A stretch of 41,107 nucleotides of DNA from a virus: the IMG/VR virus record IMGVR_UViG_3300045988_093172. One strand, 5' to 3'. Below, piece after piece: positions 1-40,758 of this stretch (position 1 is its first letter; each line of letters begins with the position of its first letter). A program made the position numbers and the translations under genes. Under the pieces are notes generated by a model, which was given only the letters and a program-made list of their open reading frames with translations, had not been told where the DNA came from and ran no database searches.

Positions 1-89
1 GAGTCACCATGGGCATCACCGTCGTCTTCGGTACGTCCGTTGCGACCATCTTCGGGGTCTTCCTTATCCCCATGATGTTCATCATCGTA
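1..89. repeat. Left copy of the 89-bp perfect direct repeat bounding the window (identical to 41019..41107). Candidate attL / attP core; alternatively terminal redundancy or a circular-assembly overlap.
   Basis: Read directly. Bases 1-89 (gagtcaccatgggcatcacc...gttcatcatcgta) recur exactly at 41019-41107, so the window starts and ends with the same sequence. The 3' end of the integrase gene lies 83 bp away. Confidence 0.95.
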
Positions 90-161
90 GAAACATTCGG
101 ACACAATAAGAAATCCTTTAGTGTGATGAAGGAAACTGTGGAAGATAAGCGCCTACATTAG
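3..161 (+). CDS. 3'-terminal fragment of a membrane transporter gene whose 5' end lies outside the window. The last TM helix resembles TM12 and the C-terminus of RND (AcrB/MexB-type) efflux permeases.
   Basis: Frame 3 is open from the window edge: VTMGITVVFGTSVATIFGVFLIPMMFIIVETFGHNKKSFSVMKETVEDKRLH, with stop TAG at 159-161. The pattern G..V..G...AT.....F..P..F..V followed by a charged tail matches my recollection of the AcrB C-terminus ([28 protein letters not shown]). The first 29 codons lie inside the 89-bp repeat. No search was possible. Confidence 0.45.
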   Translation, partial: VTMGITVVFGTSVATIFGVFLIPMMFIIVETFGHNKKSFSVMKETVEDKRLH

Positions 162-171
162 CACCTTTTGT

Positions 172-1239
172 CTACACGGGTAACGTCATGTGACACGTGG
201 GGAAGGAGTGTGTATAATACTTTAGGGTAGTCTCGATATTCGAGTGTCCCATAAGCATACTCACGGTCTTAACGTCCACATGGAATACCGTGATGAGCAA
301 GGTAGCATAGGTGTGTCTTGTGTCGTACAGATGGTGTCCCTTGGAACTCCCTAGTACGACTTCTACATACTTCTTAAAACGAACATTCACATTATCCTTA
401 CTTAGATAACCGTAGGTACTCTTCTCAGACCTGAAGATGCTTACGGTTTTCTTTTCGATTTTGTCTAATAACCACAGACCCCACTTTGTCTCTATGGGAA
501 CCTCCCGTATACTTGTGGGAGTCTTCATGGTTTCCTGTAGCTTGCCTTGGAATCCCAGTGACTTGTTGAAGGACACTCTGTCTTCCTTAATGTCTTCTCT
601 GGTTAAGGCAAGTATTTCCTGTGGTCTTGCTCCCGTAATAAAGGAAAGCACAATGTACACTTGGTATACCACAGGTAGGGTAGACAAATTCTCAATAGAT
701 AACAACTTCTGGACTTCCTCTAGGGAGAACACCTTCTTTTGTCTCTCTTGTCTTCCTTTTAACCTCCTTATGGCTTGTCGGGATTCCATAGGGTTGTTCT
801 CAAGATACCCTTCGAGTACCGCTGTTTCTAGGATAGCTTTAAAGTTTTTCCTCCAGCGATCTAGGGTAGTAGTGGCATAGCCCCTTGAGGATAACCCTAG
901 GAAAAACCGATTAATGTCCTGAGGTGTTAGGTCAGAGAACTTTATATGAGCTACCTTGCTGTTTTCTACATGTTTTCGATAGAATTGCTTTAGACCATTT
1001 AAGGTAGACTCACGGTATACTCCCGATTTAAGTTCCATGAAGTGTTCATAGTATTCTGCTACGGTAACAGGGGAGAAGTATTTGATGTCTTTCCCTTTGA
1101 TGTCCATGAAGAACTTCTGGCACTCCTCACGTGTATCAAAGGTTTTACTAACTCGCTTACCTCCTGATACGGTGATAGTGGCCTTGAATCTTCCATTGGG
1201 TCTCCTCACGATTGACCCTGTACCTTTGGTTCTTCTCAT
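172..1239 (-). CDS. int: Tyrosine recombinase / phage integrase (355 aa) with an arm-binding-type N-terminus
   Basis: The ORF track gives 172..1365. I place the start at ATG 1239 (MRRTKGTGSIVRRPNGRFKATITV...) because GGAGG lies 5 nt upstream. The N-terminus resembles the integrase arm-type DNA-binding domain. The C-terminus carries the catalytic signature HHLYDTRHTYATLL ... LMGHSNIETTLKYYTH (R..HxxR..Y). Confidence 0.9.
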   Translation of the reverse strand: MRRTKGTGSIVRRPNGRFKATITVSGGKRVSKTFDTREECQKFFMDIKGKDIKYFSPVTVAEYYEHFMELKSGVYRESTLNGLKQFYRKHVENSKVAHIKFSDLTPQDINRFFLGLSSRGYATTTLDRWRKNFKAILETAVLEGYLENNPMESRQAIRRLKGRQERQKKVFSLEEVQKLLSIENLSTLPVVYQVYIVLSFITGARPQEILALTREDIKEDRVSFNKSLGFQGKLQETMKTPTSIREVPIETKWGLWLLDKIEKKTVSIFRSEKSTYGYLSKDNVNVRFKKYVEVVLGSSKGHHLYDTRHTYATLLITVFHVDVKTVSMLMGHSNIETTLKYYTHSFPTCHMTLPV

Positions 1240-1481
1240 GTAACCTCCTTTCCTTTTCCTCATGTACTTTATGTATACCATGGATTTTGAAAAATTACAA
1301 AAAATTTCTGAGGACATACATGAATGAACAGCACACAGCAGTTCCCCCGTATACCCCTCAGTCATCCACAGTTACAATAATTGAACACTTGCTCATTTCT
1401 TCATATATCATTATGTTTTACATAACGGCACGTAGTACCATAAGTAACTCGTGTATCCGCATGGTTGAGCCATTTATAATA

Positions 1482-1515
1482 ACCCTGTTGCCTTAACGGT
1501 AGCGGGGTATTTTTT
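1482..1515 (+). terminator. Candidate plus-strand intrinsic terminator upstream of (antisense to) the int promoter region
   Basis: ACCCTGTTGCC-TTAAC-GGTAGCGGGGT forms an 11-bp stem if three G-U pairs are allowed. It is followed by ATTTTTT on the plus strand only. No plus-strand gene ends here. Confidence 0.35.
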
Positions 1516-1770
1516 CGATATATGAATGATTGCTCATACGTTATATATTTTTGAACATTTGTTCAATTAGGATTTTACAGTTGTTCAATGGATATTGCTT
1601 TAGGATATATTGATAAATTTCGATATATCTATATGTTTTTTCATGTATTACATATCTGTATAATACAGAACACTCATGTATTTCCACACACTATCACATA
1701 GGTAATACATGGCATACCTTCAGAATATTGCTATTACAAACTATATGAGTACCGCAATATTTATATAAAA

Positions 1771-2163
1771 TTACTTACGGAACCACACAATACAAACAGC
1801 ACCTAAAAGACAAATTGTTAAACCAACAACATAAATAGAAAGTATATCGACTTGTTTTTGTAGTCCTGTATTCTTCTTTATTATATCATTGATAGTCTTT
1901 GTATTTTTGTCTATCCTTGAACCTTGTAGTTCGTCCATTTGGACAGTATAAGACAATACCTCATCTAAACGTTGATTAGAAGTTAAAGCCTCGGGATTGA
2001 ATATACTTCCTTTGTGTGTGTCATTATACCATAGAACAAAGGCATTGTAACTACTACGATCCCATTTGTCTGATTTCCAGTCGTAAGCAAAGCCTAAAGA
2101 AAGATAAGATGAAAATAGGAAGAAGAGAAGTATAATTTTTAATGGGGAAAACATCTTATTCAC
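1771..2163 (-). CDS. Small membrane protein of the lysogeny module (130 aa; N-terminal signal/TM and C-terminal TM). Candidate lysogenic-conversion or superinfection-exclusion protein.
   Basis: The N-terminus MNKMFSPLKIILLFFLFSSYLSLGFA is hydrophobic, as is the C-terminus ILSIYVVGLTICLLGAVCIVWFRK. RBS GAGGTG lies before the ATG. The gene sits between int and the repressor on the same strand, separated from the repressor by a terminator. I recognise no homolog. Confidence 0.6.
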   Translation of the reverse strand: MNKMFSPLKIILLFFLFSSYLSLGFAYDWKSDKWDRSSYNAFVLWYNDTHKGSIFNPEALTSNQRLDEVLSYTVQMDELQGSRIDKNTKTINDIIKKNTGLQKQVDILSIYVVGLTICLLGAVCIVWFRK

Positions 2164-2202
2164 CTCAACTATATGTAATCTATGAGAATATTATATCAAA
2201 AA

Positions 2203-2253
2203 GGGAGGCACTTTAGAATACTCTTATTATCTAAAGTGCCTCCCTTTTTTTTT
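2203..2253. terminator. Bidirectional intrinsic terminator between the repressor gene and the membrane-protein gene
   Basis: A perfect 14-bp stem, GGGAGGCACTTTAG (2203-2216) / CTAAAGTGCCTCCC (2231-2244), is flanked by AAAAA on the left and a T9 run on the right. Confidence 0.8.
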
Positions 2254-2266
2254 ATTTTTACCACCT

Positions 2267-2464
2267 TTATTTTAATTCAAGTATTTCATCTGCCGATATA
2301 TTATAGTACCTCGCCAGCTTGCGTATAACATCTATTTTAGGTTCCCTGGTGCCGTATTCGTAGCGTTGATATACCTGTTCTTTTATCCCTAAGGCCTCTG
2401 CTACTTCTTTTTGTGTCTTTTCTCGTTCTTCTCTCAGTTGTTTTAGTTTTTTATTAAGACTCAT
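2267..2464 (-). CDS. XRE-family HTH repressor (65 aa, cI-like position, no peptidase domain)
   Basis: MSLNKKLKQLREEREKTQKEVAEALGIKEQVYQRYEYGTREPKIDVIRKLARYYNISADEILELK is a typical HTH_3 fold signature. I move the start from 2497 to ATG 2464 because AAGGAAGGA precedes it and the longer version would run into the operator/promoter. Confidence 0.85.
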   Translation of the reverse strand: MSLNKKLKQLREEREKTQKEVAEALGIKEQVYQRYEYGTREPKIDVIRKLARYYNISADEILELK

Positions 2465-2484
2465 AAATTTTTCCTTCCTTCCTC

Positions 2485-2513
2485 TTGACACAACCAAATG
2501 GTTGTTGTATTAT
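2485..2513 (+). promoter_or_regulatory. Host (sigma70-type) early rightward promoter: TTGACA-17 bp-TATTAT
   Basis: TTGACA lies at 2485-2490 and TATTAT at 2508-2513, with a 17-bp spacer filled by operator O1. A TATAAT on the opposite strand (2509-2514) could serve the repressor gene, giving back-to-back divergent promoters. Confidence 0.6.
2490..2505. promoter_or_regulatory. Operator O1: 16-bp palindrome ACAACCAAATGGTTGT
   Basis: Perfect inverted half-sites ACAACCA / TGGTTGT. It lies in the spacer of the rightward promoter and between the leftward -10 and the repressor RBS. Confidence 0.7.
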
Positions 2514-2523
2514 AATAATGCAG

Positions 2524-2539
2524 ACAGCCAAATGGTTGT
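2524..2539. promoter_or_regulatory. Operator O2: ACAGCCAAATGGTTGT
   Basis: The same 16-mer with one mismatch, 34 bp centre-to-centre from O1. Confidence 0.65.
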
Positions 2540-2609
2540 CACAGTCTTATTATATCATATGTCATGGGGTCAAACAAGAGTTGAAAATAAATTAAAAATA
2601 ACTCTTGAC

Positions 2610-2625
2610 ACAGCCAAATGGTTGT
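2610..2625. promoter_or_regulatory. Operator O3: ACAGCCAAATGGTTGT, preceded by a second TTGACA (2605-2610)
   Basis: The 22-nt block CTCTTGACACA(A/G)CCAAATGGTTGT is duplicated at 2481-2505 and 2601-2625. The -10 for this second copy is weak (AAAAAT at 2628-2633). Confidence 0.6.
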
Positions 2626-2646
2626 CAAAAAATTTTAATCTTATAC

Positions 2647-2662
2647 ACAGCCATTTGGCTGT
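2647..2662. promoter_or_regulatory. Operator O4: ACAGCCATTTGGCTGT
   Basis: Perfect palindrome ACAGCCA/TGGCTGT, 37 bp from O3 and just upstream of the RBS of the first early gene. Confidence 0.6.
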
Positions 2663-2681
2663 TAAGGGAGGCAATCATATT

Positions 2682-3044
2682 ATGACAAACTTAGAAACCA
2701 CACAAAAAATCAATGCTAACAAAATCTTTACCTGCACGCGGCGGGAATTTACACCTGATTTTAAAGCAATGGTAGTTAAAGAATATGAAGCAGGAGCTAC
2801 TAGAAAAGAATTAGCTAGAAAGTACGACATCTTGCCACACTATATTAATCGCTGGCAACAACGAGTACAAAAAGTAACACAAAGTATAAATGAAGAAACT
2901 AAAAGATACAAAGCACAAATTATAGAAAAGCACCAGAAAGAAATAGACAAGAAAGTAGAAGAACAGAATATTCAACAGGAATTACAAGCACTACGTGCTG
3001 AAAACAAGGCACTTAAAACATTGTTAAAAGTGTATATGAAATAA
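2682..3044 (+). CDS. First early gene: HTH protein resembling IS3-type transposase OrfA (HTH_Tnp_1) with a C-terminal coiled coil. Sits in the Cro / excisionase / regulator position.
   Basis: I start it at ATG 2682 (RBS AAGGGAGG) rather than 2502, since the upstream part of the ORF is the operator region. RREFTPDFKAMVVKEYEAGATRKELARKYDILPHYINRWQQRV resembles the IS3/IS911 OrfA HTH. A heptad-rich tail follows (LQALRAENKALKTLLK). Confidence 0.6.
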   Translation: MTNLETTQKINANKIFTCTRREFTPDFKAMVVKEYEAGATRKELARKYDILPHYINRWQQRVQKVTQSINEETKRYKAQIIEKHQKEIDKKVEEQNIQQELQALRAENKALKTLLKVYMK

Positions 3045-3143
3045 GTGTCGAAACACGGGGATTAACCCTCGTGTCTAGGTAAGGCTGGCAACCTGCCTAC
3101 TGATGAGACAAGCCACTTAGTTAAAAGAAGGGAAGTTTTTACT

Positions 3144-3572
3144 ATGACAATGACAAGAGAACAGGCAATCCGTAACTATGTTGAACATTTAATTGGGGAC
3201 GACCTCACACAACTTTTACAACACATGAACGCATATGACGGGTGCTTTGAAGAAGCCACTTATTACGACATGGATGAATTTGATGAATTTATGTCCAACT
3301 ACACGCCTATGGAAATTGCTCAAATGATTTTCTATGGTGGCGAATTTAACCCTAACGACGAATATTTCAGATTCAATGCTTATGGGAATTTAGAATCTGC
3401 TAATTGGGGTGATGTAGTAGCAGAGGCAGAGGACTTAGAAGAAGACATTATTAATCACCTCACACACTATTATGGGGGCGACACTCCGTGGCCAGATTTA
3501 GACGACCTTGTCGACGCCGACGATGACGCACTCTTTGACGAAAATTATGAAGAAGTAGAAGAAGACCAGTAG
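3144..3572 (+). CDS. Highly acidic early protein (142 aa). Candidate DNA-mimic or anti-restriction protein (Ocr/ArdA-like role); family not recognised.
   Basis: Very D/E-rich, ending DDLVDADDDALFDENYEEVEEDQ. It is an early gene of a T7-like phage, the position where T7 encodes Ocr. Function is inferred from composition and position only. Confidence 0.55.
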   Translation: MTMTREQAIRNYVEHLIGDDLTQLLQHMNAYDGCFEEATYYDMDEFDEFMSNYTPMEIAQMIFYGGEFNPNDEYFRFNAYGNLESANWGDVVAEAEDLEEDIINHLTHYYGGDTPWPDLDDLVDADDDALFDENYEEVEEDQ

Positions 3573-3574
3573 CG

Positions 3575-3626
3575 GATTTAACAGAGTACCCTAGGGGTTC
3601 TCTCTCTAGGGTATTCGATTAAGTCC
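3575..3626 (+). promoter_or_regulatory. Conserved intergenic stem-loop, copy 1 (candidate RNase III processing site)
   Basis: GATTTAACAGAG - TACCCTAG...CTAGGGTA - TTCGATTAAGTCC. The conserved flanks can pair as a lower stem with an internal loop, and the upper stem is 8 bp. The same architecture occurs at 4436-4482 with a different upper stem. Confidence 0.5.
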
Positions 3627-3637
3627 ACTAGTGACTT

Positions 3638-3660
3638 TTAATTGTGCCACATAAAGAAGA
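3638..3660 (+). promoter_or_regulatory. Degenerate phage-promoter-like sequence TTAATTGTGCCACATAAAGAAGA
   Basis: 19 of 23 positions match the promoter consensus TTAATTGTCACACATACAGAGGA. It lies 15 bp upstream of the 3676 gene. Confidence 0.3.
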
Positions 3661-3675
3661 AAGGAAGTGTCTAGT

Positions 3676-4434
3676 ATGAAATTTTATGAATTACCGCAAG
3701 CAACACAAGACATGTTAGTAGAACGTCAACGAGACTATGTCACCTCGTGCATGGACTGGCTAGAGGATTTGTTCCCCTTGATTAATGACAGGGTAAATGA
3801 AGAATATGGGCGTATCTTTACCGAACCATTCGACGCCCTCATGAACATTCAAGAATTTGAATGGCCTCATAATATCGTATGGTCTACTACGTACGCTGAA
3901 TTAGATCTAGCAGTTTTTTCAGAAGCATTGGGAGTTTTTGTCCCTAGTTATAACGCAAGGCTAGAAGTGTCTCCCAATGGTCGTGTGTGGCTGTTTTTCG
4001 GGGAATATCAAGCGGACTCAAGTTGGAGAGAGTTCGAGGACGCTTGCACAAAAATTCTGGCAGAAGTCAAGGACGTTATTCTCGACATTGTGTCTGAATA
4101 CTACGAGGAAGTCACAAGCACGGCCTATATTGAAAGCCAGTTGTGGGAGGAAGACTTTAAACCTAACGGAGATTTTGCGTGGGAACCGCCCGTCCTTACA
4201 GACAAAGAGCTAGTTTGCTACCTATTCAATACAGGACGCAAGGAAACCACTACAGGAAATTGGATTTTTGACCTGAAGGACTTAGATGGGCGTACCCCTA
4301 AACAGGCCTTAGCACTCCTGTATCGCTCTTCTTGTGGCGACTTTATCCTAGACGCTGAATTTGATGACAATACCCTAGACATCATCTTTGCACTCGACGT
4401 ATGCCCCAATGCTGAACAGGAAGAAGACACCTAG
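3676..4434 (+). CDS. Acidic early protein, unknown function (252 aa)
   Basis: Long ORF. I prefer ATG 3676 (MKFYELPQ...) over GTG 3667 because GAAAGGAAG lies 9 nt upstream. The protein is acidic and I recognise no motif. Confidence 0.6.
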   Translation: MKFYELPQATQDMLVERQRDYVTSCMDWLEDLFPLINDRVNEEYGRIFTEPFDALMNIQEFEWPHNIVWSTTYAELDLAVFSEALGVFVPSYNARLEVSPNGRVWLFFGEYQADSSWREFEDACTKILAEVKDVILDIVSEYYEEVTSTAYIESQLWEEDFKPNGDFAWEPPVLTDKELVCYLFNTGRKETTTGNWIFDLKDLDGRTPKQALALLYRSSCGDFILDAEFDDNTLDIIFALDVCPNAEQEEDT

Positions 4435-4435
4435 A

Positions 4436-4482
4436 GATTTAACAGAGGATACTAGCTATCCTTAGTATCCTCGATTAAGTCC
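4436..4482 (+). promoter_or_regulatory. Conserved intergenic stem-loop, copy 2 (candidate RNase III processing site)
   Basis: GATTTAACA-GAGGATACTA-GCTATCCT-TAGTATCCTC-GATTAAGTCC. The upper stem is a perfect 10 bp and the flanks are the same as in copy 1. Confidence 0.5.
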
Positions 4483-4515
4483 CTAGGAGGACTAGTAGAA
4501 AAGGGAGGAATTACC

Positions 4516-5064
4516 ATGAAAAAAGATATGACGGAAAAGCAATTAAAATTTTGCTTCAATGTGTACGGCCAAGTGCAGGAAGTGTTGTTCTTGCGCACTC
4601 AATGCGCTGAAGAAAGAATAGTTATCTTTCAGCTCAATCAGCAGACACGTAGTCTAGGTCAATGTCACCTGTATGGTTCTGATCTGGCACGTATTGAAAT
4701 CAGTGAATACGCCTTAGATGACACGGGTATGCCCTTTATGGAAACCCTAGTCCACGAATGTATTCATGCTTGCCTGCCCATGCACGAACACCATGGCAGT
4801 AAATTTCAGCAGGCTTGCTTAGTGTGTGGGGAACACTTTGACCTAACCTTGTCTCGATTAGCGTCCCCTAGCGTCACTAAGGCCTTTGTCTCGAACCAGC
4901 CTAGGGGCAAGTATAAAGTCGTGTGGGAAGACGGCGACTACGCCTACTACAAGACTAAGAGGAAGTGGATAGTCAAGGATTTGCTGGCACATGGTGGCTC
5001 TCGTGTCTACAAGCTCACTACAGGGGAAACCTTAAAAGCCAGCTTGATTGTAAGGGGAGACTAG
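4516..5064 (+). CDS. SprT-like zinc metalloprotease domain protein
   Basis: TLVHECIHACLPMHEHHGSKFQQ carries HExxH followed by the HG..F motif typical of the SprT-like family. RBS is AAGGGAGG. Confidence 0.6.
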   Translation: MKKDMTEKQLKFCFNVYGQVQEVLFLRTQCAEERIVIFQLNQQTRSLGQCHLYGSDLARIEISEYALDDTGMPFMETLVHECIHACLPMHEHHGSKFQQACLVCGEHFDLTLSRLASPSVTKAFVSNQPRGKYKVVWEDGDYAYYKTKRKWIVKDLLAHGGSRVYKLTTGETLKASLIVRGD

Positions 5065-5130
5065 TACACCGAACAAGTGTTTGATATACTAGAGAATAGA
5101 ACAAGCGTTCGTAATATAGGAGGTGTCATA

Positions 5131-5361
5131 ATGAATCGCTATGCATATGTAGGAAGGCCCTGCCAGCTAGAGCAGGAAATAGAAGACCTTCAGACACAAG
5201 GATATTGTTTGTTCAGCCGCTTCACAGGCTCAGAAGGGGGACGCAAGGTGAAGCAGGAACTAGCTAGGGTACAGCAAGTCTTCCCTGACAGGCAGTATGT
5301 CGTACTCAAGGGAGGCAAGACTCATAAGGATACATATAAGCAAGCCATATTATTCAAGTAA
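5131..5361 (+). CDS. Small early protein, unknown function (76 aa)
   Basis: Start moved from 5077 to ATG 5131 because of the strong RBS TAGGAGGTG 5 nt upstream. It is the last gene before the early terminator. Confidence 0.5.
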   Translation: MNRYAYVGRPCQLEQEIEDLQTQGYCLFSRFTGSEGGRKVKQELARVQQVFPDRQYVVLKGGKTHKDTYKQAILFK

Positions 5362-5365
5362 TTAG

Positions 5366-5417
5366 TAGCAGGTAACTGAATATGAAAAAAGTGTCATTCA
5401 GTTACCTGCTATTTTTA
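5366..5417 (+). terminator. Intrinsic terminator closing the host-transcribed early operon, immediately upstream of the RNAP gene
   Basis: A 16-bp perfect stem, TAGCAGGTAACTGAAT (5366-5381) / ATTCAGTTACCTGCTA (5396-5411), is followed by TTTTTA. Confidence 0.8.
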
Positions 5418-5427
5418 TACCCTAGTG

Positions 5428-5447
5428 AACCAAACATAGGTTTGGTT
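5428..5447. promoter_or_regulatory. Palindrome AACCAAAC-ATAG-GTTTGGTT abutting the RNAP-gene promoter
   Basis: Eight-bp inverted arms whose right arm overlaps the first two bases of the phage promoter. The same CCAAAC-N4-GTTTGG geometry occurs at 8302-8317. Confidence 0.5.
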
Positions 5448-5468
5448 AATTGTCACACATTCTAGGAG
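5446..5468 (+). promoter_or_regulatory. Phage RNAP promoter, variant copy, directly upstream of the RNAP gene
   Basis: TTAATTGTCACACATTCTAGGAG shares the invariant TAATTGTCACACAT. It differs from the other copies in the initiation region (TTCTAGGAGG versus ACAGAGGA). The AGGAGG doubles as the RBS for ATG 5480. Confidence 0.75.
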
Positions 5469-5479
5469 GAGGAATAAAA

Positions 5480-8041
5480 ATGATGACATTAGAACAACAA
5501 TTAGAACTTGAAAAGATGTACAAAGGCTTAGCAGAAAATCGTGCTTTGCAGGTGTTGAACAAGGCAAAAGCTGACGGGGCCTATGAACGGACAAAGGTTG
5601 GTCAAGGTGTCATGAATCACCTAGCAGAAACCTATACGAAAAACGTAGAAGCCTTTGTTACAGACTGCTTACAGCCGAAACGTGGGGTTCAACCTGCATA
5701 CGCAAAAATCGTCAAGGACTACGTACTGGCCCTAGGTGGAGACACACAGAAATTTTCAAGACTCTGTGCTACTTTGTCTCTTAAAATGGCCCTTAGTGCC
5801 ATGATGAGACGTTCCCATGTAGCTAACAATATTGGGGGTGCAATCGGTCTTGAACTGGAACCAGAAGTAGAAGCAATGGCTTTCTTTGCAGACAAGAACA
5901 ATGTCAAGCGTTTTAACAAGGCCATTAGCTCCCGTGTAGGCTTTTCCTATCGTAGAATCTTCATGGAACATGTCTATGAAGGTGTTGGATTTACCTTTGT
6001 CAAGCATACAGCGAAAGAAAGAACGTCTTTAGGTATGCAGTTGTTAGCTGTCCTAGTGGAAACGACGGACTTCTTTGTCTTTCAAGAAGTATCTGAAGAT
6101 GGCAAGACACAGCCTTTACAGTTACTTCCTACAGATATCTTCTTAAAAGCGATAGCCAATGCAGAAGACAAGAGTATCAGCCTAGCTATTACGTATGTAC
6201 CGACTATCATCCCTCCGAAACCATGGACTAGCATGTGGGACGGGGGTTACTATGGGGCTTTGTCTCAGAATAAAACCTTAATGCGTTACATCCCCTATGC
6301 AAGGTCTTCACAGACACGCAAGTTATACACTAGTAGACTCAATGAACTTGATCTATCTAGTTTATACTCAGCTGTCAATGCGATTCAAGCAACGGCCTAT
6401 AGAATCAACAAACCCGTGCTGGACATTCTCAAGTATTACCTAAGTATCGGCGGTGGCATTGCAGGACTAGCAGAGACAAAACCACTTGAACAGCTTCCAC
6501 GGTTCCCTCATGCCTATGAAGACATTAAGGAAGATGAAGAACTACTCAAGGCGTTCAAGGCACACAAAAAGAAGATGGTAGAAGTTGTACACAAGGAAAA
6601 TCAGCGAAAAGGGAAAGCCCTGAGAGCTGTCATGATTCTGAAGACCGCTGAAGATTTTGCTAAGTATGACTCAATCTGGTTCCCCATGAACATTGACTTT
6701 CGGGGCCGTGTCTATCCGATTCCTACGGGTCTCAACCCTCAAGGGGACGACATGACAAAATCCTTATTACAGTACGCTAACCCCGTCCCTGTGTCTACTG
6801 AAGACGCTCCCGACGCTATCAATTGGTTAGCAATCCACGGGGCAGGACTGGCAGGTCACGACAAGATTCCTCTGGAAGACCGTGTAGCATGGGTAGAGGA
6901 AAACAAGCAGAACATTTTGTCTAGTGCTGAAAATCCGCTGGACTTCCCATGGTGGCAGGAGCAGGACAAGCCATGGCAGTTCTTAGCGTGGGCCATGGAG
7001 TACAAACGGGCCTTAGAATACCTTGACAGCCATGGAACCCTAGCAGGTTTTGACTGCCGTTGTACAATCGCTTACGACGGGACTTGCTCAGGACTCCAGC
7101 ATTACAGTTGTCTGCTCCGTGACCCTGTAGGCGGTTCCGCTGTCAACTTGATTGACCACGATAAACCTTCAGATATTTATAGAGAAGTTTCGGATAAGGT
7201 ATTGACAATGGTCAAGAAAGATGTTATGGAAGGAACCACAAAAGGCAAGGAACGAAAAGACGGCACATTTGGGCCAGGGACAAAGCAAATGGCAGAAGCA
7301 TGGCTGGCACATGGCATTAATCGGAAAGTGTGCAAGCGCCCCGTCATGACCCTAGCTTACGGGAGTGGTCAATACGGATTCGCTGACCAAATCTATGAAG
7401 ACACCACGAGGGACAACCCCCACTTTGCAGGTGTCGGGGATAGACAAGCCGCTCAGTACCTAGCTAAGTTGACATGGAAGGCTGTACAGACAACCGTTGT
7501 AGCCGCTATTGAAGGTATGGAATGTTTGAAGAAGATTGCCACGGCCCTTGCAAAAGCCGATATGCCTGTCGAATGGGTAACACCTATGGGGCTTCCAATT
7601 CAGCAGATGTATCTAGCACGAAAGACAGAATCTTTCCAGCTCCGCCTAGGAAATGCTTCTACACGCTACCGTATCTACGTAACGACGGTTAGCGAAAACG
7701 AGGATGTAGACAGACACAAGCAAGCAACAGGGGTAGCTCCCAATTTCATCCACTCCCTCGACGCTACTCACTTGATGATGAGCATTAATGAAGCAAGTAA
7801 AGAAGGGTGTGTGAACTTCAGTACCGTTCATGATTCTTTCGGAACGTCCCTCGGTGAAGCGGCTCGATTACGCCGTATTATCAGACAACAGATGGTTAAG
7901 TTGTACACGGAGCATGATCCCTTAGCGGATTTCCTGAGACACGCTGAAGAGCTGTTAGGGGAACCACTGGACATTGAACTTCCTAAAAAGGGTTCCTTAG
8001 ACATTAACTGTATCTTAGATAGCAAGTTCGTTTTTCACTAG
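5480..8041 (+). CDS. Single-subunit DNA-directed RNA polymerase (T7 gp1-like, 853 aa)
   Basis: YDGTCSGLQHYSCLLRD, KRPVMTLAYGS and TVHDSFGT match the T7 RNAP palm motifs FDGSCSGIQHFSAMLRD, KRSVMTLAYGS and VHDSFGT. Start placed at ATG 5480 (RBS AGGAGGAGG) rather than 5450, which lies inside the promoter. Confidence 0.97.
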   Translation: MMTLEQQLELEKMYKGLAENRALQVLNKAKADGAYERTKVGQGVMNHLAETYTKNVEAFVTDCLQPKRGVQPAYAKIVKDYVLALGGDTQKFSRLCATLSLKMALSAMMRRSHVANNIGGAIGLELEPEVEAMAFFADKNNVKRFNKAISSRVGFSYRRIFMEHVYEGVGFTFVKHTAKERTSLGMQLLAVLVETTDFFVFQEVSEDGKTQPLQLLPTDIFLKAIANAEDKSISLAITYVPTIIPPKPWTSMWDGGYYGALSQNKTLMRYIPYARSSQTRKLYTSRLNELDLSSLYSAVNAIQATAYRINKPVLDILKYYLSIGGGIAGLAETKPLEQLPRFPHAYEDIKEDEELLKAFKAHKKKMVEVVHKENQRKGKALRAVMILKTAEDFAKYDSIWFPMNIDFRGRVYPIPTGLNPQGDDMTKSLLQYANPVPVSTEDAPDAINWLAIHGAGLAGHDKIPLEDRVAWVEENKQNILSSAENPLDFPWWQEQDKPWQFLAWAMEYKRALEYLDSHGTLAGFDCRCTIAYDGTCSGLQHYSCLLRDPVGGSAVNLIDHDKPSDIYREVSDKVLTMVKKDVMEGTTKGKERKDGTFGPGTKQMAEAWLAHGINRKVCKRPVMTLAYGSGQYGFADQIYEDTTRDNPHFAGVGDRQAAQYLAKLTWKAVQTTVVAAIEGMECLKKIATALAKADMPVEWVTPMGLPIQQMYLARKTESFQLRLGNASTRYRIYVTTVSENEDVDRHKQATGVAPNFIHSLDATHLMMSINEASKEGCVNFSTVHDSFGTSLGEAARLRRIIRQQMVKLYTEHDPLADFLRHAEELLGEPLDIELPKKGSLDINCILDSKFVFH

Positions 8042-8050
8042 TGCGACTAG

Positions 8051-8104
8051 AGAAGGAAGTAAGTAGAGACAAAGGTCTTACCTCTTACTTCCTTCTTCTT
8101 TTTC
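8051..8104 (+). terminator. Intrinsic terminator after the RNAP gene
   Basis: AGAAGGAAGTAAG (8051-8063) pairs with CTTACTTCCTTCT (8084-8096) and is followed by TCTTTTT. Confidence 0.7.
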
Positions 8105-8124
8105 TATTAAGAACACCTGTTTGG

Positions 8125-8147
8125 CTAATTGTCACACATACAGAGGA
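8125..8147 (+). promoter_or_regulatory. Phage RNAP promoter
   Basis: CTAATTGTCACACATACAGAGGA, preceded by GTTTGG as at two other copies. Confidence 0.8.
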
Positions 8148-8151
8148 ACCC

Positions 8152-8233
8152 CCTAAGTATTCCTAAGTAACTAAAGGAAGACTAATTAGGTTTAAGTAGG
8201 AGTAAGTATAGTTAAGTATTCCTAAGTATTCCT
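8152..8233. repeat. Array of 10-bp-phased TAAGTA(T)TCC repeats between tandem phage promoters
   Basis: AAGTA starts at 8155, 8165, 8194, 8204, 8214 and 8224. The 13-mer CCTAAGTATTCCT occurs at 8152, 8221 and again at 40840. Confidence 0.7.
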
Positions 8234-8243
8234 AGGGCTGAGA

Positions 8244-8266
8244 TTAATTGTCACACATACAAGGAA
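8244..8266 (+). promoter_or_regulatory. Phage RNAP promoter
   Basis: TTAATTGTCACACATACAAGGAA. Confidence 0.8.
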
Positions 8267-8301
8267 AGAAAAACTACTACTACTCTACCTCTGTGTCTAT
8301 C

Positions 8302-8317
8302 CCAAACACATGTTTGG
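8302..8317. promoter_or_regulatory. Palindrome CCAAACA-CA-TGTTTGG abutting a phage promoter
   Basis: It ends one base before the promoter at 8318 and has the same CCAAAC-N4-GTTTGG geometry as 5430-5445. Confidence 0.5.
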
Positions 8318-8340
8318 TTAATTGTCACACATACAGAGGA
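8318..8340 (+). promoter_or_regulatory. Phage RNAP promoter (consensus copy)
   Basis: TTAATTGTCACACATACAGAGGA, identical to the copy at 40764. Confidence 0.85.
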
Positions 8341-8371
8341 AAGGACACAAAATTTTCAAGGAGGTAAGGAC

Positions 8372-8812
8372 ATGAGCAACCAGAAGAAAGTCTTACGTGA
8401 TTTTGAAATCGTCCGTGTAGATGTGCAGGATTTTGACCAGATTGAAGGCAATTATGCATACGGAGAAATCCTGAGGCACATGACAGACTTTTTTGGTGTC
8501 TTGTGCTATGAAGTGCGCTTGCGAGGGACTGATGTGTCTATCATTGTCAACTGGGACAAGGTGCAGAGAGTCGCAGAAGAAGACAACAAGCATGACAAGC
8601 ACTACTTAGAAGCTGTTGTAGAGCCTATCAAGGTCATGGAAAAGATGTTTACCAAAGAAGAACTTAAAGGCTTTATCAAAGGTAACATTTTGAAATACCG
8701 CTTACGCATGGGACACAAGGACGACATTCAGAAAGAAATGGATAAAATCCGTGTCTATGAGCAGTGGTTGGAGAAGCTGGAAAGAGGTGAAGCACTGATA
8801 GATGAGAACTAG
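8372..8812 (+). CDS. DUF3310-like domain protein (146 aa)
   Basis: The C-terminal half, HYLEAVVEPIKVMEKMF...GNILKYRLRMGHKD...KIRVYEQWL, fits the DUF3310 pattern (HY..EPI....gN..KY..R...K). RBS is AAGGAGG. Confidence 0.6.
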   Translation: MSNQKKVLRDFEIVRVDVQDFDQIEGNYAYGEILRHMTDFFGVLCYEVRLRGTDVSIIVNWDKVQRVAEEDNKHDKHYLEAVVEPIKVMEKMFTKEELKGFIKGNILKYRLRMGHKDDIQKEMDKIRVYEQWLEKLERGEALIDEN

Positions 8813-9308
8813 AAAACCTTTGTCTATCGTATTCAAACCCTTACGGGATGATATTGAAGTACCTCAAATCAAGACACAAGGTTCCGCAGGGGCAGACATT
8901 GTGATTCCCGACGATGTAACCATTGAGCCTTTTAGTCTTATTGGTAAGGGTACATTAGTTCCCTTGGGGTTCTCTTTAGATATTCCTGAAGGGATGCAAG
9001 TACATATCATGTTACGGTCAAGTGTTGGCTTGAAGACCCCTATCCGTTTGTCTAATGGTGTTGGTCTGATTGATTCAGATTACAAGGGCGAACTCTGCTT
9101 ACTACTTGATAATTTGTCTAAAAATTCAATTCACATCAAAAGTGGGACTCGAATAGCGCAATTAGTGCCGTTTCCTACCTTAAAGTGGGAGTTCGAGTTA
9201 ATTGTCACACATACAGGGGAAAGAAAGCATTTCAACCCTATCCAAAATACTAAGCGCAGTGGTGGCTTTGGGTCTACCACAAGAACAAAAGGAGACAAAA
9301 GCAAATGA
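8802..9308 (+). CDS. dut: dUTP diphosphatase (trimeric dUTPase)
   Basis: The five dUTPase motifs are recognisable: GSAGADI, LRSSVGLK, GLIDSDYKGEL, RIAQL and RSGGFGST. Confidence 0.9.
   Translation: MRTRKPLSIVFKPLRDDIEVPQIKTQGSAGADIVIPDDVTIEPFSLIGKGTLVPLGFSLDIPEGMQVHIMLRSSVGLKTPIRLSNGVGLIDSDYKGELCLLLDNLSKNSIHIKSGTRIAQLVPFPTLKWEFELIVTHTGERKHFNPIQNTKRSGGFGSTTRTKGDKSK
9198..9220 (+). promoter_or_regulatory. Phage RNAP promoter embedded in the 3' part of the dUTPase coding sequence
   Basis: TTAATTGTCACACATACAGGGGA, read as codons for ELIVTHTGE. Confidence 0.75.
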
Positions 9309-9844
9309 AAATTAAAGGTAAAGCATATTGGGCAAAAATTAGAACACCTGAAACATACAACGGCCAGCCTGTAGGCTTCTCGATGCAGGTTTTGATGCCC
9401 GATGAAAACTTAGCAAAAATGAAAGCCTACTTTGAAGGCAAATGCAAAGAAGAATTTGCAGGCAAGAAGATGTTAGGTGACATCACAATGCCGATTAAAA
9501 CCACAGACGATGGTCTGGAAATGGTCAAGGTAAAAACGAAGCACGTGTATAAAGACAAGGCGACAGGAGTAGAAAAACCGAAGGTTATCCCTGTATACAA
9601 TGAATACGGCGAACTGATTCCCGAAGACGTTCTTATTGGTAACGGTTCCGACGTAGAAGTTGTCGTCAATCCCAAACTGTACTATGAAAGCACAAAGAAG
9701 TGGGGCGTTCGCCTGTACCTTCAGTGCTTGATGGTTACAAATCTCGTTAAGTATTCTAAAGACGGTTCCGACGAACTGACATTTAAGAAACGAGATGCAG
9801 AGGATGAAACAGAAACCACGCTGGACGACGAGGTAGACTTCTAA
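9305..9844 (+). CDS. Single-stranded DNA-binding protein, T7 gp2.5-like
   Basis: Size and position match T7 gp2.5. It has an OB-like core (IGNGSDVEVVVNPKLY...WGVRLYLQCLMV) and an acidic C-terminal tail ending in an aromatic residue (ETETTLDDEVDF), as in T7 gp2.5. Confidence 0.75.
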   Translation: MKIKGKAYWAKIRTPETYNGQPVGFSMQVLMPDENLAKMKAYFEGKCKEEFAGKKMLGDITMPIKTTDDGLEMVKVKTKHVYKDKATGVEKPKVIPVYNEYGELIPEDVLIGNGSDVEVVVNPKLYYESTKKWGVRLYLQCLMVTNLVKYSKDGSDELTFKKRDAEDETETTLDDEVDF

Positions 9845-9845
9845 G

Positions 9846-10316
9846 TTGTTCACAGGCGGTTTCCATACACCTGCTAAGACAAAACGAAGTAAGTATGAAG
9901 ACACGCTTACTGCTAACCTTGACAAAAAGAATAAAGAATACCATTACGAAGAGTTCTCTCTGGAGTACACGGTAAAGCACAAATATACCCCTGATTTTGT
10001 CTTGCCAAATGGCATTATTGTCGAGGCTAAGAACGGGGAAGGTGGCTTTGTCCGTGTTGGTAAAAAAGGGGGATTCTACAGAGGCTCATTGGATAGTGAA
10101 GCACGAGGGAAGATGCTGAAGGTAAAACGACAGTATCCCGAACTTGATATTCGCTTTGTCTTTCCTAAAGACTTTAAATTTCAGAGTTTGAAGACAACGG
10201 CGAGTAAGTGGTGCGAGAAGAATGGCTTTAAGTATCACATTGGAAACACGATCCCTGAGTCTTGGTTTAAAGAAGAGGGCCAAATTAGCCCCAAACTAAA
10301 AAAGAAAGGAAAGTGA
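9846..10316 (+). CDS. Endonuclease I (T7 gp3-like Holliday-junction resolvase)
   Basis: EYHYEEFSLEYTVKHKYTPDFVLPNGIIVEAKN matches T7 endonuclease I (KFEYEEWKVPY...HTYTPDFLLPNGIFVETKG). The only available start is TTG 9846. Confidence 0.85.
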   Translation: MFTGGFHTPAKTKRSKYEDTLTANLDKKNKEYHYEEFSLEYTVKHKYTPDFVLPNGIIVEAKNGEGGFVRVGKKGGFYRGSLDSEARGKMLKVKRQYPELDIRFVFPKDFKFQSLKTTASKWCEKNGFKYHIGNTIPESWFKEEGQISPKLKKKGK

Positions 10317-10317
10317 C

Positions 10318-10683
10318 ATGTTTAAATTCAGAGACAGAGAAGAAACTCTCTTCTACTCCTTTGTCTATAAAGAACTCGAAGGAAGAACTGTCTCCGAACT
10401 GTTGAAGGAAGCACGAAGAAAAGGAGCGTTTTCGTTACCGTATCACGCTGTAGTTCTCAAGAATGGCGAACTCGACCTCATGCGTCCGTTTGAAGCAGTC
10501 GGGGGTAGCGAACTTCCTTATAGTGCTTGTGGCGTTTATATTCTCGTGGATGCTGAATCTAAAGAGTCCTTATCGGCTTTACAGAAGAAGCGACTGGACG
10601 ATTTAGTTCAGATGTTCCACGAGGACTATGCAGACATCGTAGAGGAAGAGTTCAACAAAGATGAATTACAGCGAACCGATTAA
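10318..10683 (+). CDS. Short T7 gp3.5 (lysozyme/amidase)-like protein (121 aa), possibly non-catalytic
   Basis: It aligns by eye to T7 lysozyme (FKFRDRE / FKQRES, PYHAVVLKNGE / GYHFIIKRDGT, AVGG / AVGS, GVYILV / GVCLVG). It has Y where T7 has zinc ligand H17 and ends before the C130 region. Confidence 0.5.
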   Translation: MFKFRDREETLFYSFVYKELEGRTVSELLKEARRKGAFSLPYHAVVLKNGELDLMRPFEAVGGSELPYSACGVYILVDAESKESLSALQKKRLDDLVQMFHEDYADIVEEEFNKDELQRTD

Positions 10684-12256
10684 GACACACCTCCCTTGCC
10701 CTGACTGTGGTTCCTCGGATGCCCTGACAGAATACAGTGATGGTCACACATACTGCTTCTCCTGTCAAACGGTACGAGGAGCTACAACACAGGGGACACA
10801 TACAGCCGACCTTATACCTCTCACTTCTTTGTCTATTACTCCTCTAAAGCGGCGTGGAATCATGTCTACCACATGTGAAAAGTACCACTACTATACAGGT
10901 TATCACAATGGGAAACCTGTGCAGGTAGCGTGTTACTTTGACGACGCAGGGGAGCTGATAGGCCAGAAAGTACGGTATCAAGACAAAACGTTTGAGACGA
11001 TTGGTAAAATTTCCAAGCGTTTCTTTGGTCAAGAGCTTTTTGAGAGTAGAGGCAAGCTGGTAATCACAGAGGGTGAGATTGATTGTCTCACTGTGTCACA
11101 ACTACAAAATAACAAATATCCCGTTGTGTCTATCCCTTGTGGGGTGGCCTCGGCAAAGAAAGTATTGACACACAACATGGAGTGGCTATCACAGTTTGAT
11201 GAGGTCATTTTGATGTTTGATATGGATGAAGCAGGAAGGAAGGCCATCAAGGAATGTGCTGGACTCCTGAAGGATTTGAAGGTGGCTAATTTACCACTGA
11301 AAGACCCTAATGAATGTCTATTAGCTAACAAAGGGCAGTCCGTCATCAATGCTATCTGGAACGCTAAAGCATACAAGCCAGACGGTATTGTAAACGGAGC
11401 TGACCTCTGGGAGATGGTAGACAGCGAAGAAGACGAAATGTGCTATACATACCCTTGGGATATTCCACTAAACGACATGACAAAGGGCCTCCGAAAGGGG
11501 GAACTCGTTGTCGTTACCGCAGGTACAGGGGTAGGCAAGACTACGTTTGTAAGACAAATCATGTATGACTTGGGGGTCAAGAAAAACCTCAAAGTAGGAT
11601 GTATGATGCTTGAGGAAAATGTAAAGCGCACCTCCGTGGGACTTATGTCTATACACACGGGAGTACGCTTGCACTTATCAAGACACGCTATCAGTGAAGA
11701 AGAGTATCGGAAGGCATTTGATGAGACACTGGGGACAGGAAACTACGTACTCTACAATCACTTTGGAAGTCTTGAGGGTGACAACTTACTAAACAAGATT
11801 CGATATTTAGCTATTTCTGAGGAGTGTGACTTCATCGTTCTCGACCATGTGTCTATTGCTATCTCTGGTTTGGAGGGGGACAATGAGCGAAAACTGATTG
11901 ACTACCTCATGACACAGATGAGAAGCATTGTAGAAGAGACAGGGGTGGGCATGATTGTCATATCACACTTGCGAAGACCTGACAACTCTCAGAAGTCTCA
12001 TGAAGAAGGTGGTATTACCTCGCTGGCACAGCTCAGAGGCTCCCACGCTATCTCACAGCTTTCAGACATCGTACTGGGGCTGGAAAGGAATCAGCAGGAG
12101 TCCAATGAAGAGCTGAGAAACACCACTCGTGTACGTGTCTTAAAGAACCGCTTCACAGGTGAGACTGGCATAGGAGGCTACCTGACATACAACAGAAAAA
12201 CAGATCGCTTGGAAATAGCAGAGAAGGAAGAAGATGATGATGAAGCAGAATTTTAA
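10661..12256 (+). CDS. Bifunctional primase-helicase (T7 gp4-like)
   Basis: Contains a zinc ribbon (CPDCGSSDA...CFSC), a TOPRIM motif (EGEIDCLT, FDMDEAG), a Walker A motif (GTGVGKTT) and a DnaB-like C-terminal domain (VLDHVS, ISHLRR). Confidence 0.95.
   Translation: MNYSEPIKTHLPCPDCGSSDALTEYSDGHTYCFSCQTVRGATTQGTHTADLIPLTSLSITPLKRRGIMSTTCEKYHYYTGYHNGKPVQVACYFDDAGELIGQKVRYQDKTFETIGKISKRFFGQELFESRGKLVITEGEIDCLTVSQLQNNKYPVVSIPCGVASAKKVLTHNMEWLSQFDEVILMFDMDEAGRKAIKECAGLLKDLKVANLPLKDPNECLLANKGQSVINAIWNAKAYKPDGIVNGADLWEMVDSEEDEMCYTYPWDIPLNDMTKGLRKGELVVVTAGTGVGKTTFVRQIMYDLGVKKNLKVGCMMLEENVKRTSVGLMSIHTGVRLHLSRHAISEEEYRKAFDETLGTGNYVLYNHFGSLEGDNLLNKIRYLAISEECDFIVLDHVSIAISGLEGDNERKLIDYLMTQMRSIVEETGVGMIVISHLRRPDNSQKSHEEGGITSLAQLRGSHAISQLSDIVLGLERNQQESNEELRNTTRVRVLKNRFTGETGIGGYLTYNRKTDRLEIAEKEEDDDEAEF
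10738..10760 (+). promoter_or_regulatory. Weak candidate internal phage promoter inside the primase gene
   Basis: TGATGGTCACACATACTGCTTCT shares the 11-mer GTCACACATAC with the promoter core, but the upstream AT-rich part (3 of 5) and the initiation region differ. Confidence 0.2.
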
Positions 12257-12725
12257 AATTCCTGTGTATTCTCATGGTGTCACGCTGAATGAAATCCCTG
12301 ACAAAATCTCACTGGTCATTAACTTAGGAAAATGTGAATGTCATTGCAAGGGGTGTCACAGTGATTACCTGTGGGATACACATGAGTGTGATGAACAGAC
12401 ACCAGAAGAGCTTTTGTCTCTCATCAAGAGCTACAAGAGTGTTACCAATACGGTACTCTTCATGGGTGGTAATCGTAATCACATGGACTTTGAAGAATTT
12501 GCTGATAGTGTACTGAAGCCTCTCCACAACTTAGGTATCAACATTGGTATCTACTTGGGAGCTTGGGATGCTATGGATTTATTCACAGCTTGTAAGTATT
12601 GCCGCTGGGTAAAAGTGGGCGCATACAGAGAAGAGCTGGGAGGTCTGGACAATCCCGACACGAACCAGTTGTTCCTCGAAGTACAGAACTATAAATTTCA
12701 CAAGGGAGACACAGGATGGAAGTAA
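12234..12725 (+). CDS. nrdG: Anaerobic ribonucleotide reductase activating protein (radical SAM, NrdG-like)
   Basis: GKCECHCKGCHSDYLW carries the CX3CX2C cluster motif in the NrdG context GC...C.GCHN..W. The gene lies adjacent to nrdD. Confidence 0.75.
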   Translation: MMMKQNFKIPVYSHGVTLNEIPDKISLVINLGKCECHCKGCHSDYLWDTHECDEQTPEELLSLIKSYKSVTNTVLFMGGNRNHMDFEEFADSVLKPLHNLGINIGIYLGAWDAMDLFTACKYCRWVKVGAYREELGGLDNPDTNQLFLEVQNYKFHKGDTGWK

Positions 12726-12943
12726 GCATTTATGTCATTAAAGATTGTATGTATTGTGACACACTACTTAAAGGACTTCCAAAGGTGGTCAAGAAATTCC
12801 CGAACGTAGCTTTTAAGGTAACGTGTGTGACTGAATCAAAAGAATTTGAATTGTTCCCTACAGTAGTTGTGGGAGATAAAACTTTGTCTCCGTGCATTTA
12901 TGCAGAGGACATGGAGAAAGAGGTGAGAAATGCCCTTACTTAA
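12716..12943 (+). CDS. Glutaredoxin/NrdH-like small redox protein (75 aa)
   Basis: The N-terminal beta-strand plus CxxC (IYVIKDCMYCDTL) and the protein size fit the glutaredoxin fold. It sits between nrdG and nrdD. Confidence 0.6.
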   Translation: MEVSIYVIKDCMYCDTLLKGLPKVVKKFPNVAFKVTCVTESKEFELFPTVVVGDKTLSPCIYAEDMEKEVRNALT

Positions 12944-14717: not shown

Positions 14718-14785
14718 AATTATTGAAAATCTTGAAGCGAGTGGAGACATATTGTCACAACAAGCGTGTCATTACGGCACATAAG

Positions 14786-14872
14786 ATGCTTGTTAAGGCA
14801 ACAGAAACCTTTACTAAACTCGAACAGGAGTACGCTAAAAAGATTGCGGAGTTAAAACAGTACACAGAATAG
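14786..14872 (+). CDS. Possible very small ORF (28 aa) between nrdD and the DNA polymerase gene
   Basis: MLVKATETFTKLEQEYAKKIAELKQYTE. It is below the ORF-track threshold, has no clear RBS, and is supported only by filling an otherwise 165-bp gap. Confidence 0.2.
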   Translation: MLVKATETFTKLEQEYAKKIAELKQYTE

Positions 14873-14882
14873 GAGTGATTTT

Positions 14883-17424: not shown

Positions 17425-17441
17425 GAACAGGAGGAAACAAT

Positions 17442-40739: not shown

Positions 40740-40758
40740 TTGTCACACATATATACAA
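40736..40758 (+). promoter_or_regulatory. Phage RNAP promoter, variant copy overlapping the terminase stop codon
   Basis: GTAATTGTCACACATATATACAA. The invariant 14-mer is present but the initiation region is divergent. Confidence 0.65.

Follow-up and report, generated by a model that had tools for sequence, protein, structure and literature searches.

How does the lysogen of a temperate T7-like phage silence a polymerase that is self-sufficient and potentially runaway? The question is raised by IMG/VR virus record IMGVR_UViG_3300045988_093172 (41,107 nt; below, the window is this whole stretch of DNA), in which the gene of a T7-type single-subunit RNA polymerase (RNAP) lies behind a terminator-like hairpin and a copy of the phage's own promoter. 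Read from its sequence, the window is an integrated prophage of Megasphaera, temperate and T7-like. The original prediction, made from the letters of the window, had taken this arrangement for a potential autocatalytic latch. We collected about 20 related loci (RNAP identity 43–100%; designated L plus a number where they have to be told apart) and consider the latch plausible. In our judgement, a leaky terminator, a self-promoter and a bracketed RNAP cassette probably form a self-amplifying switch in temperate T7-like Megasphaera phages.

Hairpins and promoter around the polymerase gene

The following elements make up the cassette and its surroundings.

5366–5416, + strand: hairpin read as the early-operon terminator, with a perfect 16-bp stem, a 14-nt loop and T5 (fold, covariation)
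5425–5445, + strand: conserved spacer element of about 20 nt, GTGAACCAAAC..GTTYT (kept in relatives)
5446–5471, + strand: copy of the phage RNAP promoter, core 5447–5460 (TAATTGTCACACAT match, consensus scan, agreement with the promoter type of the genome)
5464–5472, + strand: Shine-Dalgarno sequence AGGAGGAGG for the ATG at 5480, overlapping the initiation region of the promoter (sequence)
5480–8041, + strand: T7-type single-subunit RNAP, 853 aa (Pfam RNA_pol, E = 1.4e-104)
8050–8103, + strand: second terminator-like hairpin (8050–8097), followed by C and T5 at 8099–8103 (hairpin-plus-T-run scan)
8125–8343, + strand: three consensus phage promoters (8126, 8245, 8319), a restart after the RNAP cassette (consensus scan)

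The last early open reading frame (ORF) stops with TAA at 5359–5361, and the hairpin begins 5 nt beyond. Its arms, TAGCAGGTAACTGAAT (5366–5381) and ATTCAGTTACCTGCTA (5396–5411), pair perfectly, and TTTTT (5412–5416, then A) stands directly 3′ of the stem, as in the U tract of an intrinsic terminator. The RNA folds with −27.2 kcal/mol (z = −7.7; none of 200 shuffles was equally stable), and the hairpin ranks third in stability among the + strand hairpin-plus-T-run sites found by scanning the window. Together with flanking A-U pairs, the helix nears 20 bp. Coordinates, pairing and fold energy thus bear out the predicted perfect 16-bp hairpin plus T tract at the end of the early operon.

Every relative examined (about 20 loci) has a hairpin where the upstream genes end, shortly before the RNAP region. 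At least four unrelated stem sequences occupy this position (window type, L012 type, L026, L010, L032–L034); the stem reads TAGCAGGTAACTGAAT in the window type and TAGCGTGTACTTAGA in the type of L012, another Megasphaera prophage. The stems are perfect duplexes of 12–16 bp. In a covariation alignment of nine distinct hairpin versions, 7 of the 16 pairs were altered on both sides and 99.2% of the cells were paired, compared to 20–40% in slid controls; a compensatory change within the clade, U-A to C-G, was seen in L025. Structure rather than sequence is therefore conserved, as the compensatory changes of an intrinsic terminator would have it. In almost every lineage T5–T6 comes after the stem, commonly as TATTTTTATACCC, and the run is directly adjacent in the window type, the L012 type, L010, L032, L033 and L034 despite their unrelated stems; the tract is weak (CTTTAT) in L003 and L026 and missing in L004. 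From these features we infer that the hairpin at 5366–5416 acts as an intrinsic terminator of host RNAP. As a side observation, the post-stem sequence at 5412–5424, TATTTTTATACCC (variants GTACCC, GCGCCC), recurs in L010 and L032–L034 and is kept down to 43% RNAP identity. The stems differ completely where it is kept.

The second hairpin, which was absent from the original prediction, follows directly 3′ of the RNAP stop codon. It is kept in L001–L009, and L012 and L019 carry a different stem at this place. Three consensus promoters follow within 220 bp. With hairpins on both sides, the RNAP gene is therefore bracketed in the order terminator, promoter, gene, terminator, promoters.

The 14-mer TAATTGTCACACAT occurs in seven exact copies, all on the + strand, with 0.00 expected (5447, 8126, 8245, 8318/8319, 9199, 40737 and 40765), and a whole-genome scan with the 26-nt consensus returned eight sites, none of them between 9.3 and 40.7 kb. 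Only 29 bp separate the T tract from the copy before the RNAP gene, whose transcription start is predicted at about 5464 by the T7 register. The upstream 15 nt of this copy are kept; after the core it continues TCTAGGAGGAGG, with TCTAGGAGGAG in place of the consensus ACAGAGGAAAG. The consensus melting/initiation region (−4 to +6) is thus absent here; it is present in the L012 and L019 clades. The difference concerns how strong the promoter may be and leaves its identity untouched. The copy accordingly keeps the invariant core, differs in its initiation region and supplies with its 3′ end the ribosome-binding site of the RNAP gene (overlap with AGGAGGAGG, ATG at 5480), all of which had been foreseen.

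The original prediction had further proposed that the variant initiation region may tune the gain of the loop. Tuning is possible, and the idea is weak and not needed, as the variation coincides with the encoding of a ribosome-binding site 8 nt from the ATG. The variant region is confined to the window clade, in which the promoter abuts this site, 33 nt from the ATG. In L012 and L019 (57–58% relatives), the leader measures 54–57 nt and the pre-RNAP copy equals the full consensus. The overlap of promoter and ribosome-binding site therefore explains the variation without gain tuning.

No sigma-70-like promoter was found between the T tract and the ATG, neither by a simple scan of the window nor in the Megasphaera prophage L012. 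The first RNAP would therefore have to be made from host transcripts extending past the terminator, whether through leak or through antitermination. A hidden sigma-70 promoter before the ATG was considered and rejected: beside the negative scan, a candidate seen by eye, TTGTCA-17-AATAAA, is missing the final T, and its transcription start would fall beyond the ATG. Also rejected was a ribosome-binding site sequestered in read-through transcripts only, since 5412–5510 folds no better than its shuffles (z = −0.7).

Is the copy at 5447 used by the phage polymerase? The relatives employ at least seven promoter types, and the recognition region of each genome is present in its own pre-RNAP copy. 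Among the relatives with at least 53% RNAP identity, about 17 in number, none has lost this copy. Genomes using TAATTGTCACACATACAG, TAATTGTCCCACATACAG, TAATTGTCCCACAGAGTAG, TTGTCCCACATAGTAGAG, TTGTCCCACTATYAAGAG, TAATTGTCCCCCGTTATGG and TTAATGTGTCCGGTATATGG carry it, and L032 has a looser version. Its place is right after the terminator and ahead of the RNAP gene; in L026 and L032, a small ORF comes first, which the RNAP gene follows. Within the close clade, all promoters of six genomes read ...GTCACAC... and all promoters of five read ...GTCCCAC..., the pre-RNAP copy included; the A/C difference is position 9 of the promoter 14-mer. In the specificity loop of the RNAP (KTESF[Q/R]LRLG), Gln is found in the A-type group and Arg in the C-type group. 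The site is residue 722 of alignment A2 (window about 7640–7645) and aligns with R746 of T7 RNAP (ungapped alignment from the HKQ motif). Gln occurs in 6/6 A-type genomes and Arg in 10/10 C-type genomes checked, distant ones included, so that all 16 match. Since the concerted change of promoters and polymerase includes the pre-RNAP copy, there is strong evidence in these alignments for the copy at 5447 as a probable working target of the phage RNAP, and selection on it of the same kind as on the other phage promoters is supported. The window RNAP itself is about 35% identical to its best RNAP matches in the phage collection, a comparison outside which the Pseudomonas phage LUZ100 stands.

Prophage state and the lysogeny switch

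Upstream of the cassette, the following features bear on the state of the phage and on the transcription that reaches the RNAP gene.

1–89, no strand assigned: att core repeat, left copy of an 89-nt exact direct repeat (right copy 41019–41107)
172–1365, − strand: tyrosine integrase (Pfam Phage_integrase, E = 3.5e-15)
2267–2464, − strand: XRE/Cro-CI-type repressor, 65 aa (Pfam HTH_3, E = 3.8e-18)
2485–2662, + strand: switch region with sigma-70-like early promoters and four operators ACARCCAAATGGYTGT (promoter and operator scans)
2682–5361, + strand: early operon of five ORFs (ORF list, Pfam)

Positions 1–161 of the window belong to the host, being the 3′ end of an RND transporter gene (AcrB-like). 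A metagenome contig from ENA (L028), 100% identical to window positions 1–18041, runs leftward into TetR, RND-MFP and ACR_tran genes and shows the prophage, at its integrase end, to be inserted in an RND transporter gene of a bacterium. For the 89-nt terminal repeat, a circular contig whose ends overlap in the assembly was considered and is disfavoured compared to an att core, as L028 runs on into host genes. The phage sequence also appears to complete the interrupted ORF of the host transporter. The exact repressor protein is found as WP_289122435.1 of an uncultured Megasphaera sp., and a 98% identical RNAP lies on a 2.73-Mb Megasphaera contig at NCBI; RNAP homologs with E ≤ 1e-100 number 904. 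A first scan of a genome collection with the single RNAP protein gave no match; a profile scan then detected L012 (57% relative) as a prophage in Megasphaera sp. AM44-1BH. On these sequence matches, the host is Megasphaera, a gut bacterium of the Negativicutes. Integrase, XRE repressor, operators and integrated copies (L028, L012) support the temperate lifestyle that had been proposed.

The early promoters (TTGACA-17-TATTAT at 2485–2513 and a second at 2605–2633) are overlapped by operators ACARCCAAATGGYTGT at 2490, 2524, 2610 and 2647; the motif has 8 matches, with 0.4 expected. They are followed by an HTH protein (2682–3044), ORFs at 3144–3572 and 3667–4434, a SprT-like protein (4516–5064) and an ORF at 5131–5361. 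Because the promoter is overlapped by four operators beside a divergent XRE gene, the early operon is plausibly transcribed by the host and controlled by the repressor. The host-transcribed early operon of the original prediction stands, by sequence and comparison, as far as the sigma-70-like promoter, the operators and the conserved terminator are concerned; termination by host RNAP is its conditional part. No homolog of a known antiterminator or of T7 lysozyme was detected among the early or class II ORFs, nor a lysozyme at the syntenic position, and a search for known RNA families found no Rfam element in the window.

Does the terminator matter for lysogeny? In L003 and L004 (90% RNAP identity), the integrase gene is reduced to 60–69 nt, and both XRE gene and operators are missing. 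The place of the lysogeny module is taken by a non-coding repeat region with two strong sigma-70-like promoters (L003 3430–5060, L004 6300–7660). Since integrase, repressor and operators are gone and strong sigma-70-like promoters stand instead, L003 and L004 look like virulent derivatives. They are also the only close relatives with a reduced (CTTTAT in L003) or lost (L004) T tract, and they keep a shortened hairpin and the self-promoter. This pattern fits a termination that matters for lysogeny.

The proposed switch and its alternatives

The elements suggest the following course. In the lysogen, the XRE repressor would shut the sigma-70-type early promoter and no transcription would reach the RNAP gene. 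Once the early promoter fires, most transcripts of the host RNAP would end at 5366–5416, and the fraction reading through would be the only visible source of phage RNAP. The first molecules could then use the 5447 promoter on their own gene, a positive feedback that the downstream terminator would bound as a largely monocistronic unit, and would also fire the promoters from 8126 to 9199, leading to replication and late genes. The terminator would thus serve as a leak filter that protects lysogeny, while the self-promoter would make the lytic programme self-sustaining. The elements, the temperate state and the co-evolution of the promoters agree with the read-through priming and all-or-none device originally proposed, whose read-through and bistability we infer.

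Several observations weigh against this switch. Bistability would require non-linearity. With 7 of its 26 positions deviating from the consensus, every one of them in the melting/initiation region, the 5447 copy of the window clade may be weak. The T run at 5412–5416 is just 5 long. The 13-bp hairpin of L004 persists without any T tract, and that of L003 and L026 with only CTTTAT; the hairpin is therefore selected also for something beyond intrinsic termination, such as stabilising the 3′ end of the mRNA. The link between the loss of lysogeny and that of the T tract rests on one lineage, a scan of metagenomes for the same pattern having yielded no further independent one, and L026 is integrase-positive yet has only CTTTAT. 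Finally, the RNAP gene of L034 (45% relative) is preceded by a terminator, yet no copy of the promoter motif of that genome, TAATTGGAACAGTATTTAGAGAGA, was detected at this place, so that not every member of the wider group would have the feedback. The pre-RNAP terminator reaches the 43–45% relatives, and the self-promoter is demonstrable only down to 53% RNAP identity. For L034 a promoter motif could be defined; for L033 (43% relative), de novo definition gave no clear motif. The terminator of L034 (9900–10001) consists of a hairpin plus T6, and the gene preceding it is a Bro-N/ANT antirepressor-like ORF.

A more specific version of the self-amplifying switch goes further and is offered tentatively. 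Here, the cassette would be the actual commitment device of temperate T7-like phages in a host of the Firmicutes lineage, and its upstream terminator would be one that specifically silences the polymerase in lysogens and decays when lysogeny is lost (L003, L004), and the 20-nt element at 5425–5445 would be a putative site for a regulator or antitermination factor gating the loop. This element is palindromic in the window (AACCAAAC/GTTTGGTT) and present in relatives of 57–100% identity whatever their immunity type; it is absent in L010. A repressor operator beside the self-promoter was considered, as the element of L006 shares 14 nt with the operator, and was rejected as a general feature. Because the element is kept across unrelated immunity regions, it is probably no repressor operator; the window version matches the operators of its own genome poorly, and the operator motif is absent at 5400–5480. 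Related palindromes (CCAAACA..TGTTTGG) lie just upstream of the promoters 8126 and 8319, at 8109–8124 and 8302–8317.

Alternatively, both hairpins could mainly be elements of RNA processing or stability, the RNAP gene being the distal part of the early operon and its promoter a later boost. On the T7 map of Dunn & Studier 1983, RNase III hairpins R1 and R1.1 reportedly flank gene 1, and a promoter, phiOL, is said to lie upstream of the early region. The two hairpins stand at the positions of R1 and R1.1, which speaks against our preferred switch, the helix of the window nears the 20 bp mentioned above, and the upstream hairpin persists where the T tract is lost (L004) or weak (L003, L026). Against RNase III processing as the main function, T5–T6 abuts unrelated stems in six lineage types, and an RNase III site needs no T run. 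Further, the stems are perfect and, with 12–16 bp, short for RNase III, and they lack the internal loop typical of the T7 sites, which measure about two helical turns; T5 follows most of them. The genomes losing the T tract are, moreover, the two that lost lysogeny. We regard this explanation as unlikely.

Less probable still, in our view, is a real terminator that is overcome through active antitermination and not through stochastic leak, in the manner of lambda N at tR1; a product of the early operon or an RNA element would modify the host RNAP. The phage RNAP gene would be expressed with delayed-early timing, and the self-promoter would only maintain this expression. Lambdoid phages likewise place a terminator between a temperate switch and the gene block that follows, no function could be assigned to three of the five early ORFs, and a conserved element stands at 5425–5445. 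On the other hand, no early protein resembles a known antiterminator, the early gene content is mosaic among relatives with the same cassette, and the window is free of Rfam elements.

It is highly improbable that the 5447 copy has no role in RNAP expression and either primes replication, as proposed for the origin-associated promoters of T7, or is a decaying duplicate. Its initiation region is non-consensus in the window clade, and T7-type promoters can reportedly prime replication, but the copy always directly precedes the RNAP gene, or a small ORF plus RNAP gene, in all of the about 17 relatives of at least 53% identity, tracks every change of promoter specificity, has the full consensus in the L012 and L019 clades, and is a poorer match for a T7 origin analogue than the triple promoters 8126–8319.

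Beyond the cassette, three further promoter features were recorded.

3638–3663, + strand: TTAATTGTGCCACATAAAGAAGAAAG, a diverged promoter-like copy within the early operon (differs from the 26-nt consensus at four positions)
9198–9223, + strand: last phage promoter before the replication/late region of about 31 kb (consensus scan)
40736–40789, + strand: tandem phage promoters after the terminase gene (consensus scan)

L001, L006 and L011 retain the copy at 3638, which stays the same across the A/C switch. Were it active, the phage RNAP could transcribe three early genes as far as the terminator. In the prophage, the tandem promoters point towards attR; in the circular form, they point at the integrase gene on its antisense strand. 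The 31 kb of 9223–40736, with the genes for replication, structure and packaging, showed no phage promoter-like site and only two evident terminator-like sites, 23785–23811 (after the capsid gene, T10) and 38264–38293.

Some features of the window lie outside these questions. TGTCTAT occurs 27 times on the + strand and 6 times on the − strand of the whole window, with 2.8 expected (e.g., 8294, 8821, 10362, 10830, 20024), often within YTTTGTCTAT or TGTGTCTATCCC; its KKGTC core resembles the recognition sites of T7 primase, and it could be such a site or a pause signal. Short-repeat arrays like TAAGTATTCCT follow the promoters 8126 and 40765 (8150–8240 and 40800–40900). They resemble the repeat arrays near the ends of the T7 genome and may mark the ends of virion DNA. 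The gene of a family A DNA polymerase (span 14883–17424) is split into 14883–16274 and 16864–17424 by an Endonuclease_7-type ORF, which looks like a homing-endonuclease insertion. At 12234–14717, this T7-like genome encodes an anaerobic ribonucleotide reductase (NrdD) and an activase-like radical-SAM protein; NrdD would fit a strictly anaerobic host.

Comparison with known systems

In T7, no terminator lies between the promoters A1–A3 and gene 1, and the early terminator TE follows gene 1.3. The contrast drawn from this in the original prediction omitted two points, the hairpins R1/R1.1 around gene 1 and phiOL. T7 and the Megasphaera prophage share the gene order around gene 1, hairpins on both sides of it, a cluster of phage promoters just downstream and, with phiOL, a phage promoter upstream. 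In contrast, T7 is not known to have a phage promoter directly before gene 1, a lysogeny module or a terminator before gene 1. The virulent-looking relatives L003 and L004 approach the T7 layout but retain the self-promoter.

An RNAP gene under its own promoter is said to have been built as the synthetic T7 autogene (Dubendorff & Studier, 1991), reportedly autocatalytic and dependent on tight control of the basal leak; the term "autogene" is in current use. There, the construct is engineered and the leak is held by lac operator and repressor plus T7 lysozyme, whereas the Megasphaera cassette has a natural upstream terminator and a repressor on the feeding operon, and no T7-lysozyme homolog at the syntenic position.

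In lambdoid phages, delayed-early control combines the terminator tR1 with antitermination by N. Similar is the placing of a terminator behind a repressor-controlled early promoter, by which the lytic genes of the following block are gated. Unlike there, what is gated here is the gene of an RNA polymerase that has its own promoter, and no antiterminator was found.

The closest parallel is LUZ100, a T7-like Pseudomonas phage, in which the phage-specific promoter phi1 was mapped directly upstream of the RNAP gene, with the terminator T4 at the end of the host-transcribed operon before it (Putzeys et al. 2023, mSystems, PMC10134795). It was hypothesised there that sporadic read-through by host RNAP is followed by positive feedback, repressed by a MarR-like protein (PMC10134795). 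The model of read-through followed by feedback is thus not new, having already been put forward for another T7-like phage. Both systems combine a lysogeny module and an integrase with a self-promoter before the RNAP gene, behind the terminator of a host-transcribed operon, and integration is seen in our sequences. Boeckman et al. 2022 is said to be the earlier work on which the LUZ100 study builds.

Nevertheless, the two differ in several respects. The RNAP gene of LUZ100 is fed by the lysogeny module, which encodes a MarR-like regulator and the integrase and points in the same direction as that gene, and MarR sites were proposed on both sides of phi1; such MarR control was not recognised in the Megasphaera prophage. 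Here, the lysogeny genes are divergent, the regulator is of the XRE/Cro-CI type with four operators 2.9 kb away, and a lytic early operon feeds the RNAP gene, with no sign of a repressor operator at the self-promoter. The cassette further ends in a second terminator, and the host, a member of the Negativicutes, belongs to a different phylum. Lysogeny of LUZ100 was not demonstrated, whereas integrated copies exist for the Megasphaera phages.

The design known from LUZ100 is thereby extended to a gut bacterium of the Negativicutes and to a lambda-like XRE switch. The clade offers natural variants of one compact cassette, with seven or eight promoter types, at least four terminator stems and virulent-looking derivatives without a T tract. 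Because of these many variants, the LUZ100 hypothesis can be tested by comparison together with simple reporter constructs. Further, the matched RNAP–promoter pairs, which differ by one residue and one base, represent a natural specificity switch and could serve as orthogonal expression parts.

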